42,404 nucleotides of DNA. Origin: an uncultured Haloferula sp. Lineage in GTDB: Bacteria > Verrucomicrobiota > Verrucomicrobiia > Verrucomicrobiales > Akkermansiaceae. Positions 38,278 through 42,404 of the stretch are shown here, piece after piece; the stretch's first letter is position 1, and the number at the start of each line of letters is the position of its first letter. The notes beneath the pieces were generated by a model, which was given only the letters and a program-made list of their open reading frames with translations, did no database searches and had not been told where the DNA came from. The translations under genes and the position numbers were made by a program. The DNA lies in the NCBI GenBank assembly GCA_965652295.1, contig CBFGTS010000024.1, positions 1 to 42,404 of the forward strand. The letters run 5' to 3'.

Positions 38278-39177
38278 TCAAGCGGAGCGGCGACGACGCG
38301 CCACCAACCCCAGAGCCGCCAGCCCCGCCAGCATCGCCGACGAAGGCTCGGGAATCGCATTGAGGAACTGGCTCGTGCTCAGAGCCTCGTCACTCCAGCG
38401 GATCTCATCGAGGTAGCCGTTGAAGAAGTCCCCCGGATTTCCATTGAACTGACCGCGCCCGATGGTCCAGGAGGTCGGCGTGCTTGGCACCAACAGTCCG
38501 TCGAAACCCGAGACTTGGCCGACGCTGGTGCCGTCGACGTAGAGGGTCAACGTATCCGCGGTTGAATCGCCCACCGCAGCCAAGTGGTACCAAGTATTCA
38601 AATCCGGAATGAAGGAACTGTTGACCTGGATGTTCGTGTTGCTGGCCGTGATCAGCTCGACGCGGAAGGAATTGGTCGGTGCCGATCCGAGCACGCCACC
38701 GGACTCGCCCATGTATAGCAGCGATTGCCCTCCCGTGCCGGACCCCGGATTCCCGTTGTCGTCCCGGCCCACGAAGGTGTTCCAGCCCGAGTTGTCCGTC
38801 ACGTTCACGAACATCTCCAACGTGAAGTTGGTGAAGGTCGTCGTCGCCAGCGCCGAACCCGCCGGGTTGGGCTGATAGATGTCGTCGCCGCCATCGAATT
38901 CCATCGCCACGTTGTTGCTGTACATTGTGGTGGGCTTCGAAGCCGTCGTGTAGTTCGGAGAGGCAGCGGTGCTCCATGCCACCATTCCATTGGTGCCATT
39001 TCCTCCGCCATCGACCGTGAGGCTGCCGGTGGCCCCGGAGGAGCCGACCGAGTTCACCTCAAGTCCGTTCGTTCCTTCCTCGAAGCTGAAGTAGGCCACC
39101 GTAGAGGCCGACACAGCTTGAATCGCCGCAGCAGCGGCAAGACCAGCAAACGCCGGCCACGCTTGGGTTCGTTTCAT
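38278..39177 (-). CDS. LamG/ConA-like domain protein with PEP-CTERM sorting signal
   Basis: Signal peptide; FTLEMFV, WYHLAAV, LYVDG, TIGR, FNGYLDEIRWS; C-terminal IPEPSS + TM + RRRR. Confidence 0.93.
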   Translation of the reverse strand: MKRTQAWPAFAGLAAAAAIQAVSASTVAYFSFEEGTNGLEVNSVGSSGATGSLTVDGGGNGTNGMVAWSTAASPNYTTASKPTTMYSNNVAMEFDGGDDIYQPNPAGSALATTTFTNFTLEMFVNVTDNSGWNTFVGRDDNGNPGSGTGGQSLLYMGESGGVLGSAPTNSFRVELITASNTNIQVNSSFIPDLNTWYHLAAVGDSTADTLTLYVDGTSVGQVSGFDGLLVPSTPTSWTIGRGQFNGNPGDFFNGYLDEIRWSDEALSTSQFLNAIPEPSSAMLAGLAALGLVARRRRSA

Positions 39178-39429
39178 TGGGTTTTTGGTATGGGTTTTAA
39201 CGAGCCCTCAAATCCGCGGAGCCGCCGAAATGGCAGCGCCCTACGCCAATCCAAGGAACTCGGCGGCAAGCTAGAAAATTCGTTTTACAGGTCAACAGGA
39301 AACGAATCCTAAGAATCGATTCCTTCAGCTTCTTATTGCGCATTTTTCGACCTCCTTAGCCCCCGCCGGGGATCTGCCCGATCCAAACCTTTGGCAAACC
39401 GACCCGGACATGGTCTTCTCCTCTCCAGC

Positions 39430-41946
39430 GTGAGCAGCAAGCACGATCCCACCCCTGAACTCCTCAGCCCCGCCGGCAACTGGGACTGCGCCCGTGCCGC
39501 CGTTGCCGCCGGGGCCGATGCAATCTTCTTCGGCCTGCCGGCTTTCAACGCCCGCCTGCGCGCCGACAACTTCACCGAAGAAGACCTGCCGGAGTTGATG
39601 GACTTCCTCCACCGCCACGGCGTGAAGGGCTTTGTCACCATGAACACGCTGATCTTCACCGGCGAACTCGCCGCCGCCGAAGAGCAGCTCCGCAAGGTCG
39701 CCGCGGCCGGCGTCGATGCCCTCATCATCCAGGACCTCGGCCTCGCGAAGATGGCCCGGGAAATCGCCCCGGACGTCGAGTTGCACGCCTCGACCCAGAT
39801 GACGATCACCTCCCCCGAGGGCCTCGCCTTTGTGGAAAGCCTCTTTCCCCTCGAACGCGCCGTTCTCGCCCGCGAGCTCTCGCTCAAGGAAATCGACCGT
39901 TTCCAAACCTCTTCGCTGAACACTCCTCTGGAAGTCTTCGTCCACGGCGCGCTCTGCGTCGCCTACTCCGGCCAGTGCCTCACCAGCGAGTCGCTCGGCC
40001 AACGCTCCGCCAACCGCGGCGAGTGCGCCCAGGCCTGCCGCATGCCCTACGAACTGGTCGTTGACGGCGAAACGAAGGAGATGGGCGAGGTCCGCTACCT
40101 GCTCAGCCCGCAGGACCTCGCCGTCGTCGATCTCATTCCCGACCTGATCCGTTCCGGCGTGAAATCCTTCAAGATCGAAGGCCGTCTCAAGTCGCCCGAA
40201 TACGTCGCCGCCGTCACCCGCGTCTACCGCAAGGCCATCGATGCCTGTGGCTGCCCCGACTTGTCGGGGCAGGCCGTGGAAGCGGCGGCCCGCCGCGTCT
40301 CCCCCATCACCCCCGCCGACCGCTACGCGTTGGAGATGACCTTTTCCCGCGGTCTCTCCACCGGCTGGATGTCCGGCACCGACCACCCCTACCTCACCCA
40401 CGGCCGCTTCGGGAAAAAACGGGGGCCGTTCCTCGGCACCATCACCGAAGCCCAGAACGGCTGGATCCGCCTCGACACGCCGCCCTCACAGCAGATCCCG
40501 CCACTCAAGCCGGGCGATGGCGTCGTCTTCGATGCCGGGGAAAACCGCGACCTCGAACAGGGCGCGTCCATCTGGAAGATCGAGAACGACCGCATTATCT
40601 TCCACCGCACCTTCAGCGGCATCAATTTCGACCGCATCCGCCCCGGCGTCACCCTCTACAAGACCTCCGATCCCGCCCTGCAGTCGGAAATCCGCCGCTT
40701 CTGGCAAAACGCCAAGCTCACGCCGAAAAAATCGTCCCTCCACCTCACCGTCACCGGCCGCCCCGGAGAAAAGCTCATCCTTGGAGGGGGCACGCCCTCG
40801 TGCCCCGAGCCCGTGCAGGTCGCCTCCGCCATCGACCTCCAACCCGCCGCCAAACACCCGCTTTCCACCGAAACCCTCGAAGCCCAACTCGGCCGCCTCG
40901 GCGACACCCCCTTCGAACTGGCCTCCCTCGACAGCCGCCTCGAAGGCGACTGCCACCTCCCCATCTCCGAGCTCAACCGGCTCCGTCGCGAACTCGTGGC
41001 GGCACTTTCCACCTCCGACTTGCCGCAAAGGTCCGCCACCTCCGTCAGCCACCGCGATCTCCTTCCACGGATCACCCCCGACACACCGCCGCAGGCGGCA
41101 TTGTCCGTCCTCTGTCGCAGCCTCCCCCAGGTCGAAGCCGCCCTTTCCCTTCAGATCCCCACCATCTACTGCGATTTCGAAGACCCGCGCCGATACAAAG
41201 AGGCGGTCGCGCTCAAGTCCCAAATCTCCGGCCCTCCCTCCCGGATCCACCTGGCCACCCCACGCATCATCAAGCCCGGTGAACTCGGCTACCTGAAGCT
41301 CATCGAGCGCGCCGAGCCCGATGGACTCCTGCTGCGCAACCTCGCCGCCCTTCACCACTACCGCGACCGCAGCGACCTTGTGAAAACCGGCGATTTTTCC
41401 CTCAACGTCGCCAACCCCATCACCGCCCGTCTCCTCCGCGAGGCCGCCGGGCTCGATCGGCTCACGATTTCCTACGATCTCAACATCTCCCAGATCCTCG
41501 ACCTTCTCGGGGGCGCGCCGCCCTCGTGGTTCGAGCTCACGCTCCACCAGCACATGCCGCTCTTCCACATGGAGCACTGCGTCTTCTGCACCTTCATGAG
41601 CACCGGCACCTCCTACAAGGATTGTGGGCGGCCCTGCGAAAAACACGTCGTCCATCTGCGCGACCGCGTCGGCCAACTCCACCGCCTCCAGGCCGACGTC
41701 GGCTGCCGCAACACCCTTTTCAACGGCCGCGCCCAAACCGGGGCCCGCTTCTTCCCCGCCCTGCTTGATGCCGGGCTGCGTCACTTCCGGCTCGAGCTGC
41801 TTGATGAAGACGCGGATTCCGCGGAAACAGCCATTCGTCTCTACCTCGACCTGCTCGCGGGGCGGATTCAGCCCGGGGAACTCGCATCCCGCGTCGCCGC
41901 TCAGGAAAAACTCGGCGTCACCGAAGGCACCCTGGCCACCCGCTGA
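39430..41946 (+). CDS. U32-family Fe-S protein, long form (RlhA-like)
   Basis: PELLSPAG, HASTQMT, EVFVHGALCVAYSGQC, NRGECAQACR, KIEGRLK; second Cys-bearing C-terminal domain; GTG start at 39430 (approximate). Confidence 0.88.
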   Translation: MSSKHDPTPELLSPAGNWDCARAAVAAGADAIFFGLPAFNARLRADNFTEEDLPELMDFLHRHGVKGFVTMNTLIFTGELAAAEEQLRKVAAAGVDALIIQDLGLAKMAREIAPDVELHASTQMTITSPEGLAFVESLFPLERAVLARELSLKEIDRFQTSSLNTPLEVFVHGALCVAYSGQCLTSESLGQRSANRGECAQACRMPYELVVDGETKEMGEVRYLLSPQDLAVVDLIPDLIRSGVKSFKIEGRLKSPEYVAAVTRVYRKAIDACGCPDLSGQAVEAAARRVSPITPADRYALEMTFSRGLSTGWMSGTDHPYLTHGRFGKKRGPFLGTITEAQNGWIRLDTPPSQQIPPLKPGDGVVFDAGENRDLEQGASIWKIENDRIIFHRTFSGINFDRIRPGVTLYKTSDPALQSEIRRFWQNAKLTPKKSSLHLTVTGRPGEKLILGGGTPSCPEPVQVASAIDLQPAAKHPLSTETLEAQLGRLGDTPFELASLDSRLEGDCHLPISELNRLRRELVAALSTSDLPQRSATSVSHRDLLPRITPDTPPQAALSVLCRSLPQVEAALSLQIPTIYCDFEDPRRYKEAVALKSQISGPPSRIHLATPRIIKPGELGYLKLIERAEPDGLLLRNLAALHHYRDRSDLVKTGDFSLNVANPITARLLREAAGLDRLTISYDLNISQILDLLGGAPPSWFELTLHQHMPLFHMEHCVFCTFMSTGTSYKDCGRPCEKHVVHLRDRVGQLHRLQADVGCRNTLFNGRAQTGARFFPALLDAGLRHFRLELLDEDADSAETAIRLYLDLLAGRIQPGELASRVAAQEKLGVTEGTLATR

Positions 41947-42099
41947 AAGCTGGAGACCGCAAAATATGCGTGTTCCGAGAGAAAAAATTCGACTTTTTCG
42001 GGAACATTTGTAGCTCCCAGTGTTCTTAATGGTCGGAGTCCGATGATCCGGGCTTCGAAATTCGATCGATCCAACAATCACTTCAACCCTACACAGACT

Positions 42100-42404
42100 A
42101 TGACCATGATATTCCGTTCCCTCGTCGCCGCCGCCTTCTGCCTTCCCATGGCTTTCGCCGGCGACTGTGACAAATGCAAGGATGGCGACAAGGAAGAGAC
42201 CCTCGCCGTGATCACCGCCGACTGCGACAAGTGTAAAGACGGCGACAAGGACGAAGAAGCTGTCCTCGCCGACTGCGGCAAATGCAAGGACGGCGACAAG
42301 GACGAAGACACCCTCCTCGCCGGCAAGTGCGAAGGCGGTGACTGCGACAAGGACGAAGACACCCTCCTCGCCGGCAAGTGCGAAGGTGGTGACTGCGACA
42401 AGGA
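42100..42404 (+). CDS. Secreted Cys-pair/acidic tandem-repeat protein (partial, runs off the window)
   Basis: Manual translation: MTMIFRSLVAAAFCLPMAFA-GDCDKCKDGDKEETLAVITA-DCDKCKDGDKDEEAVLA-DCGKCKDGDKDEDTLLA-GKCEGGDCDKDEDTLLA-GKCEGGDCDK...; no stop, GC3-rich codons. Confidence 0.85.
   Translation, partial: MTMIFRSLVAAAFCLPMAFAGDCDKCKDGDKEETLAVITADCDKCKDGDKDEEAVLADCGKCKDGDKDEDTLLAGKCEGGDCDKDEDTLLAGKCEGGDCDK
42295..42404 (+). repeat. 51-nt coding tandem repeat (2+ copies)
   Basis: 42295-42345 and 42346-42396 differ at one synonymous position (ggc/ggt); a third copy starts at 42397. Confidence 0.9.

Follow-up and report, generated by a model that had tools for sequence, protein, structure and literature searches.

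Cys-pair repeat proteins exported by a clade of Verrucomicrobiota as candidates for an unmodified, metallothionein-like metal buffer of the cell envelope

A 42,404-nucleotide (nt) stretch of DNA from an uncultured Haloferula sp. (phylum Verrucomicrobiota; GenBank assembly GCA_965652295.1, contig CBFGTS010000024.1), referred to here as the window, ends within an open reading frame (ORF) that encodes a signal peptide followed by repeated Cys-pair units. What kind of exported protein is this: a precursor matured by dedicated enzymes, a polyprotein that is cut into many small peptides, or a repeat protein that works without any modification? The initial annotation of the window had left open the choice between a multi-core peptide precursor and a metal sponge, and had pointed to MNIO (DUF692) enzymes as possible partners. 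We observe a real, conserved gene under selection that stands alone in the genome, and whose product may act as an unmodified buffer for metal ions. The source genome (G000) is 98% complete and the window is the entire contig C24 of it; the edge at which the gene is lost is an assembly break within a 51-nt repeat.

The ORF starts at position 42100 on the forward strand (MTMIFRSLVAAAFCLPMAFA, then GDCDKC...) and is open at its 3′ end. After the AFA that closes the signal peptide, the protein reads GDCDKCKDGDKEETLAVITA, DCDKCKDGDKDEEAVLA, DCGKCKDGDKDEDTLLA, GKCEGGDCDKDEDTLLA, and then GKCEGGDCDK..., which divides the gene into the following parts.

42100 to 42159, forward strand: Sec signal peptide of the signal peptidase I type, MTMIFRSLVAAAFCLPMAFA, with Arg in the n-region, a hydrophobic core, and P-M-A-F-A
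42160 to 42219, forward strand: unit 1, GDCDKCKDGDKEETLAVITA, CxxC type, 20 amino acids, by direct reading
42220 to 42270, forward strand: unit 2, DCDKCKDGDKDEEAVLA, CxxC type, 17 amino acids, by direct reading and repeat finder
42271 to 42321, forward strand: unit 3, DCGKCKDGDKDEDTLLA, CxxC type, 17 amino acids, by direct reading and repeat finder
42322 to 42372, forward strand: unit 4, GKCEGGDCDKDEDTLLA, Cx4C type, 17 amino acids, by direct reading and repeat finder
42373 to 42404, forward strand: unit 5, incomplete at the contig end, by direct reading

A complete unit combines a CxxC or Cx4C pair of Cys with a stretch of Lys, Asp, and Glu and a tail of the form [T/A/L][L/I/V]A. Tandem Repeats Finder reports a period of 51 at 42289-42404 (2.3 copies, 96% matches) and again at 42216-42373 (3.1 copies, 82% matches), so that the signal ending in AFA and the at least five two-Cys units running off the edge, as first described, are borne out by both the ORF reading and the repeats. 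The stop codon that was then sought downstream is found on contig C6, which opens with the same repeat and holds the remainder of the gene at positions 2-172. This remainder comprises three further Cx4C units, GKCEGGDCDKDE[D/E]T[L/F]L[A/V], and ends in ...EETLLVA before the stop codon at positions 170-172. On the 3′ side of the stop, at approximately positions 195-235 of C6, a terminator hairpin of 17 pairs leads into a U-tract (-30.5 kcal/mol, z = -4.0); it had been missed by a simple terminator scan, and with direct folding 0 of 200 shuffles were equally stable. The join between C24 and C6 is supported by the closest relative examined, G021, since its gene order (U32 peptidase, Cys-pair repeat gene, LysR, pirin) is the one obtained when C6 is placed behind C24. 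Because the two contig ends do not overlap exactly, the number of units in G000 is given as at least 8.

The reality of the gene is established by genus-wide matches, by its distribution in the family, by unit changes that are exclusively synonymous, and by contigs from RNA libraries. Matches are present in 23 of the 24 other genomes of the genus, and the full-length orthologues (123-198 amino acids) are all of the same design. Units 1 and 2 have different codons at 5 of the 10 positions compared, and each of the 5 changes is synonymous in the forward frame. Contigs from three RNA libraries, originating from two studies, cover 42041-42322, 42058-42367, and 42075-42322, which attests to presence in RNA libraries only, with neither expression level nor strand. 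On the minus strand, ORFs of 107-108 and 63 amino acids are also open across the repeat (42078-42404); these arise from the composition of the repeat and risk being annotated as genes by mistake.

To follow the family beyond the genus, a profile (A1) built from 24 members was searched against 1.84 billion proteins, yielding 111 representative clusters at E <= 0.001, of which 30 reach E <= 1e-10. Every family cluster read shows a signal peptide with repeat units of this kind behind it, and Verrucomicrobiota is the commonest phylum among the nearest clusters in the ESM Atlas. When the phylum was sampled evenly, matches were confined to 4 of 401 genomes, all belonging to the source's own family, and within that family 86 of 251 genomes carry the gene. 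Carriers make up 31 of 32 genomes in genus g1 (plus G000), 31 of 33 in g16, 15 of 16 in g204, 6 of 9 in g206, and the single genome of g205 (1/1), while g207 contributes 1 of 31, a weak match with internal stops. No carriers were found in g15 (0/33), g202 (0/32), g203 (0/25), or g212 (0/20). The repeat family is thus clade-restricted and near-universal in five genera of one Verrucomicrobiota family, where it resides mostly at a single locus per genome.

Its proteins are labelled “hypothetical protein” in their sources, no Pfam or NCBIfam model matches them above cut-off, and no Protein Data Bank sequence matches at E <= 1. Hits below cut-off to Toxin_2, DUF321, SR1P, zinc-finger models, collagen-like adhesins, and HPE1_fam_CxxC were judged compositional. 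In the literature on exported metallothioneins, Cys-rich repeats of Verrucomicrobia, and multi-core precursors processed by signal peptidase I we found no description of the family, with the limit that Tables S2 and S4 of PMC12452194 might list related ORFs. The family is unnamed, and its architecture is unusual and highly regular.

How regular this architecture is becomes apparent from 29 genome-derived full-length proteins, from which 210 units were parsed. Each protein contains 4-12 units of shuffled types, with a modal unit length of 17 amino acids (range, 11-28) and a Cys spacing of 2 to 5. Exactly two Cys are present in 183 of the 210 units, and among the 224 intervals between consecutive Cys within units, 106 are CxxC, 37 Cx3C, and 59 Cx4C. 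The mature proteins consist of 23% Lys, 16% Asp, 15.5% Glu, 10.8% Cys, 9.8% Gly, 9% Ala, 5% Leu, and 4% Thr, with a mean net charge per unit of -1.6; not one Trp, Tyr, or Arg and only 2 Phe occur in 3,973 mature residues, and Lys stands directly beside Cys in the units. A recurrent His unit type reads AHCGKC-x3-7-H...EEGTLA (17 units start with HC), and dense Cys blocks are seen in relatives: SCECKKCACDSCACG in G021, CKCESCECSPCGC in G008, CKCKACKCEPCAC in P0036, and HCGKCGKGKCKEGCDCEKC in G003.

The unit ends are just as constrained. Position -1 of the tail is Ala in 194 of 206 cases, position -2 is Leu, Ile, or Val in 203 of 206, position -3 is Thr, Ala, or Leu in 190 of 206, and position -4 is Thr, Pro, or Gly; the residue after the tail is Gly in 115 of 181 cases and Pro in 0 of 181. 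Around the signal cleavage site stand P(-5), A(-3), F(-2), and A(-1), with G behind them, and among the 29 relatives this region holds Ala at -1 in 27, Ala at -3 in 25, Pro at -5 in 19, and Gly at +1 in 16. The C-terminus coincides with the end of a tail in each of the 29 full-length proteins, most of which also begin their first unit immediately behind the signal. Among P0067, P0099, P0118, L026, and L027, some members have a Cys directly after the signal (e.g., ...LVLAC, ...LALAC, or ...AFAC), and some unit junctions read L-A-G-C and resemble a lipobox; judging by these residues, a few family members may be lipoproteins.

Structure prediction with AlphaFold2 (AF2) yields no fold for either of the two sequences modelled, the window protein and the most regular orthologue (predicted local distance difference test [pLDDT], 41; predicted template modelling [TM] score, 0.12-0.13), and the mature protein is predicted to be intrinsically disordered with no stable apo-fold. 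An ESM Atlas model of an orthologue, of low confidence (pLDDT, 0.57), lies nearest to beta-helix and pentapeptide folds (TM score, 0.55-0.64). As to the state of the thiols, G000 has no match to DsbB, VKOR, DSBA, or Thioredoxin_4, and across the genus DsbB is found in 0 of 35 genomes and VKOR in 14 of 35, so that many genus members appear to be without a canonical periplasmic disulfide-forming system. Given these missing matches in G000, the exported thiols would not be oxidised enzymatically by a recognisable system, and they could stay reduced.

With a probability that we put a little short of even, the repeat protein is an unmodified, metallothionein-like metal buffer or sponge of the periplasm or envelope. 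The Lys-flanked Cys, the scarcity of aromatic residues and absence of Arg, the CxxC and Cx3-4C pairs, the His-Cys units, the dense Cys blocks, the predicted disorder, and the lack of a Dsb oxidase in G000 all argue for this reading; missing aromatics and Lys beside Cys are classical metallothionein traits. The protein would be a stand-alone, Sec-exported, disordered chain that, once its signal of 20 amino acids is removed, consists of nothing but tandem units of about 17 amino acids, in each of which a Lys-flanked Cys pair leads through an acidic stretch to a short, Ala-terminated hydrophobic tail. Its Cys pairs, together with the His subtype and the dense Cys blocks, would act as thiolate ligands for soft metal ions (Cu(I), Zn, Cd), and the protein would become compact only upon metal binding, with a dedicated promoter of the extracytoplasmic function (ECF) type supplying it on demand. 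Reduced thiols, metal binding, the promoter class, and the physiological role are parts of this model that we infer.

Metallothioneins, both bacterial (SmtA/BmtA and MymT) and eukaryotic, are small and Cys-rich, with Lys by Cys, CxC or CxxC motifs, no aromatic residues, and no stable apo-fold. The repeat family resembles them in part: aromatic residues are nearly absent and CxxC dominates, but Cys makes up only 10.8%, and classical dense blocks such as that of P0036 occur in some relatives only. The repeat family differs from them in being Sec-exported rather than cytoplasmic, in its tandem modules, which include acidic stretches and hydrophobic tails, and in its lower Cys density, and metallothionein models of Pfam and NCBIfam do not match the family proteins. 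Another point of comparison is Csp1 of methanotrophs, a copper storage protein that is a folded four-helix bundle exported by the Tat route. Its proposed role, in which an exported protein stores or buffers metal by Cys thiolates outside the cytoplasm, is comparable, but the repeat family has a Sec signal, no predicted helices or fold, and no sequence-family match.

An unmodified protein would need no partner enzyme, and the surroundings of the gene are in line with this, since the 31 loci have no conserved neighbour gene in common and 488 kb of family loci contain no MNIO, DUF2063, or DoxX gene. The neighbours depend on lineage: rpsT with a photolyase-related protein and XerC/D; phosphotransferase system (PTS) enzyme I with HPr kinase; a U32 peptidase; a TlyA-like methyltransferase; or DUF456 with DUF1802. 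At most 4 of 17 loci from other genera have any one neighbour in common, and no protease, exporter, radical-SAM enzyme, or metal-homeostasis gene is linked in the loci examined. The repeat gene stands alone, and its neighbours are housekeeping genes. Maturation or export genes near homologues (DUF692/DUF2063, DoxX, radical SAM, peptidase, or transporter), which the initial annotation had suggested looking for, are not conserved anywhere in the set, and, by the condition for refutation that it had itself named, the part of its reading that called for the gene cluster of a ribosomally synthesized and post-translationally modified peptide (RiPP) is refuted. Directly upstream in the window, at 39391-41946 on the forward strand, lies a gene for an 851-amino-acid protein with Peptidase_U32 and DUF3656 domains, whose matches to the TrhP and UbiU models are well below cut-offs; it adjoins the repeat gene only in G000, G021, and G008. 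Farther upstream, at 38278-39177 on the minus strand, a 299-amino-acid secreted Laminin_G_3 protein carries a PEP-CTERM sorting signal.

The absence of these genes bears most directly on the idea that the protein is a RiPP of the bufferin or oxazolin type, in which an MNIO would convert Cys to thiooxazole or oxazolone-thioamide before export to give a copper-binding product. The literature premise of this idea holds: exported EGKCG-repeat proteins are MNIO substrates, and type-1 Buf_EGKCG/oxazolin precursors are exported by Sec, are built of repeats of 17 residues that each hold two EGKCG motifs (two Cys), and very seldom occur in genomes without MNIO (PMC12452194). The general design of the repeat family is the same, comprising a Sec signal, a variable count of 17-residue (51-nt) repeats, two Cys at Cx4C, a low complexity rich in Gly, Lys, and Glu, and export with a proposed copper-binding role (PMC12452194), and MNIO is present in 28 of the 86 carrier genomes, so cross-modification is possible in those strains. 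However, neither PF05114 nor PF09836 is found in G000 at its 98% completeness, and MNIO is absent from 58 of the 86 carriers, including the closed genome G003 and 6 of 6 g206 carriers. A tblastn search with MNIO, DUF2063, and DoxX proteins gave 0 matches in 32 family loci plus the window, while controls matched; by comparison, MNIO and DUF2063 lie directly downstream in 5 of 5 EGKCG loci examined.

The sequences themselves diverge as well. In an hhalign comparison with 12 real EGKCG precursors, the repeat family scores a probability of 2.4% over 22 aligned columns, and the NPF..GY segment that follows the signal in 12 of 12 EGKCG proteins is missing from it. The repeat family motif is GKC[K/E]xGDC or DCDKC rather than EGKCG, its Cys is followed by Asp, Lys, or Glu and not by Gly (except in HCGKC units), and its acidic spacers and hydrophobic ...TLA tails contrast with the basic Lys/Ala spacers of EGKCG proteins, which have no hydrophobic tails. 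The MNIO clusters found in the genus come with adjacent precursors of their own, either DUF2282-like or of a short KCSGKDGC or EGCKGKDGC type, and hhalign against two of the short type (L036 and L038) gives below 1%. Nor is there a Pfam DUF2282 match, as would be expected of bufferin Buf1, for the window protein, the C6 fragment, or 15 full-length members. The link to MNIO/DUF692 is contradicted for G000, which has no MNIO or DUF2063 in its genome; for the family, we reject the RiPP-cluster reading and give MNIO modification only the slimmest of chances. The short Sec precursors of the genus MNIO clusters (L036, 2383-2742, minus strand; L038, 147-566, minus strand) carry KCSGKDGCDGKKKE or EGCKGKDGCKGKDGC motifs, hydrophobic spacers, and an ...SIL end, and the genes of L038 run ECF sigma, anti-sigma, MNIO, DUF2063, with the precursor last. 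These precursors are possibly unrelated to the described bufferin classes too.

If the metal-buffer protein is supplied on demand, its control would lie in the region preceding the start codon. We aligned the 170 nt before the ATG in G000 and 14 genus orthologues, and two features stand out.

42000 to 42028, forward strand: conserved element GGGAACA-N15-GTTCTTA, from the upstream alignment of genus orthologues
42029 to 42099, forward strand: 5′ leader with a CA-rich (ACCAACCA-like) stretch before the ATG, seen in orthologues of all genera examined

The pattern TTTnCGGGAACAAA-N~13-GGTTCTCA precedes the ATG in 14 of the 15 genus sequences, across three genomic contexts, and in its strict form has a single occurrence in G000; a drifted form, G(G)AATAA-N16-17-TCTC/TCTA, is present in most of the g16 and in the g205 upstream regions examined. 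The element resembles a -35 GGAAC and -10 GTTC/TCT, which we take to be an ECF-sigma consensus, and by this resemblance it is a putative ECF-sigma-like promoter, while a sigma-70 scan found no promoter for the gene. No Shine-Dalgarno sequence is evident in 42060-42099 or in the upstream regions of L018-L031 and L071-L087, and the CA-rich leader may serve as an unstructured leader that enhances translation. The RNA contig that is longest toward the 5′ side starts at 42041, downstream of the element, and the three starts (42041, 42058, and 42075) fall within 35 nt rather than at one site. The same three RNA libraries leave the upstream U32 part, 41000-42033, uncovered or match it by short diverged pieces only; a DNA run from a soil metagenome (X3), which contains a 935-nt piece with 3 differences, covers it. 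Taken together, this coverage is at most a weak hint at a separate transcript for the repeat gene.

Several observations weigh against a metal buffer. In none of the loci examined is the repeat gene linked to one for metal homeostasis (CopA, CusF, a Zur/CueR-type regulator, or similar), and no regulon was found in G000, where the 18 matches to a loose form of the upstream motif, compared with 9 when the sequence was reversed as a control, form no coherent gene set; the promoter class itself is assigned by resemblance only. At approximately 11%, the Cys content is below that of classical metallothioneins, and acidic residues dominate. The Cys pairs of an aerobic soil bacterium could oxidise spontaneously without Dsb, and the low AF2 confidence would be equally expected from a polyprotein or a plain disordered protein. 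Furthermore, 12 of the 210 units are without one Cys, and P0038 and P0076 repeat Cys-free units of the GDKKKKEKEEEKEEETLLA type in which the signal peptide, the charge pattern (Lys-rich, Glu-rich), and the TLLA tail are kept. The final Ala of the tail (194/206) equals or exceeds the Cys pair in conservation, which a simple sponge model does not explain.

It is this strong and otherwise unexplained conservation of the tail that keeps alive a second explanation, a polyprotein or multi-core precursor that would be cut after each [T/A/L]-[L/I/V]-A tail following export, by signal peptidase I or another periplasmic protease. Relying on housekeeping enzymes only, such a protein would release many dithiol peptides of about 17 amino acids, which could be metallophores, signals, or antimicrobials. 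The unit ends mimic the c-region of a signal peptide (a helix breaker at -4, the residue at -3, Ala at -1, and Gly but never Pro at +1), and the internal sites meet the residue rules of signal peptidase I, with a small residue at -1, a small or aliphatic one at -3, and no Pro at +1. Exact phase, with every full-length protein closing on a tail and the first unit mostly adjoining the signal, fits this explanation too, as do the tails retained in the Cys-free units of P0038 and P0076, the variable number (4 to 12) and shuffled types of units, and a predicted disorder that would leave the chain accessible to proteases.

However, signal peptidase I needs a hydrophobic h-region to position its substrate, and only 2-4 hydrophobic residues precede each internal site, with no h-region. 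In addition, no dedicated protease or exporter is linked in the 31 loci, no processed peptides have been observed, and no bacterial precedent was found in the literature. We regard cleavage of this kind as unlikely. Slightly less likely still, as its more specific form, is a cluster-free peptide factory, in which the polyprotein would carry repeated copies of its own cleavage site, [P/G/T]-[A/T/L]-[L/I/V]-A then G, and signal peptidase or a periplasmic tail-specific protease would release 4-12 copies of a dithiol peptide acting as a diffusible metal chelator or signal. The nearest analogues would be fungal Kex2-processed repeat precursors (of the alpha-factor or ustiloxin type) and multi-core RiPPs, which likewise have a signal and tandem near-identical units, each with an end motif as potential protease site, in a protein that is an exact multiple of its units. 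Those systems are eukaryotic or reliant on cluster-encoded enzymes, whereas the repeat family has a motif like that of signal peptidase I and no linked processing enzyme, and its cleavage is only proposed. Of the two functions put forward in the initial annotation, the periplasmic metallothionein-like protein has come out better supported, while for the polyprotein the likeness of unit ends to the signal cleavage site is real.

The acidic stretches and the Cys pairs also lend themselves to readings without soft metals, both of them weaker than a metal buffer or a polyprotein. In a disulfide-stapled, acidic structural protein of the envelope, the Cys pair would form a disulfide loop and the Asp/Glu runs would bind Ca2+ or another hard cation, possibly on a solenoid. 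The units of G000 are indeed strongly acidic, with D-x-D-x-D-x-D (DCDKDED), the low-confidence ESM Atlas model gives a lead, and no more than a lead, toward beta-helix or pentapeptide folds, and a beta-helix model is reported for 17-residue EGKCG proteins in PMC12452194. Yet DxDxD is not conserved in the family, where g16 units read EKCKKKCDKEEEESTLVA and the mean net charge is modest, and Pfam shows no EF-hand, Excalibur, or TSP3 match. Units that vary from 11 to 28 amino acids, with a Cys spacing of 2 to 5, fit a regular solenoid poorly; AF2 finds no fold; and G000 has no Dsb or VKOR oxidase. We consider this explanation improbable.

The same lack of DsbA, DsbB, and VKOR in G000 would, conversely, suit a thiol-disulfide redox buffer or electron carrier of the periplasm, an abundant exported CxxC protein that replaces the missing Dsb or scavenges oxidants. 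CxxC is the commonest spacing (106 of the 224 intervals), and the gene is near-universal, mostly at one locus per genome, in its genera. But no thioredoxin fold surrounds the CxxC, the spacing varies freely among CxxC, Cx3C, and Cx4C, carriers occur with and without VKOR alike, and Cys-free variants exist, which makes a redox role quite improbable in our view.

The prevailing view of exported Cys-rich repeat proteins is that of MNIO substrates (bufferins and oxazolins). Here, the same outward design of a Sec signal and 17-residue two-Cys repeats persists in five genera in which most genomes have no MNIO, in a family that assemblies miss or split up, as contigs break at its repeats. If the repeat proteins bind metal unmodified, Verrucomicrobiota of soil and rhizosphere would have in them a class of envelope metallothionein that is new and apparently important, and they would also be a natural control for what MNIO modification adds. 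If instead they are cut at their signal-peptidase-like unit ends, they would constitute a new, cluster-free bacterial route to multiple peptides, a prokaryotic counterpart of the fungal Kex2-processed repeat precursors that would be invisible to genome mining based on enzyme genes.

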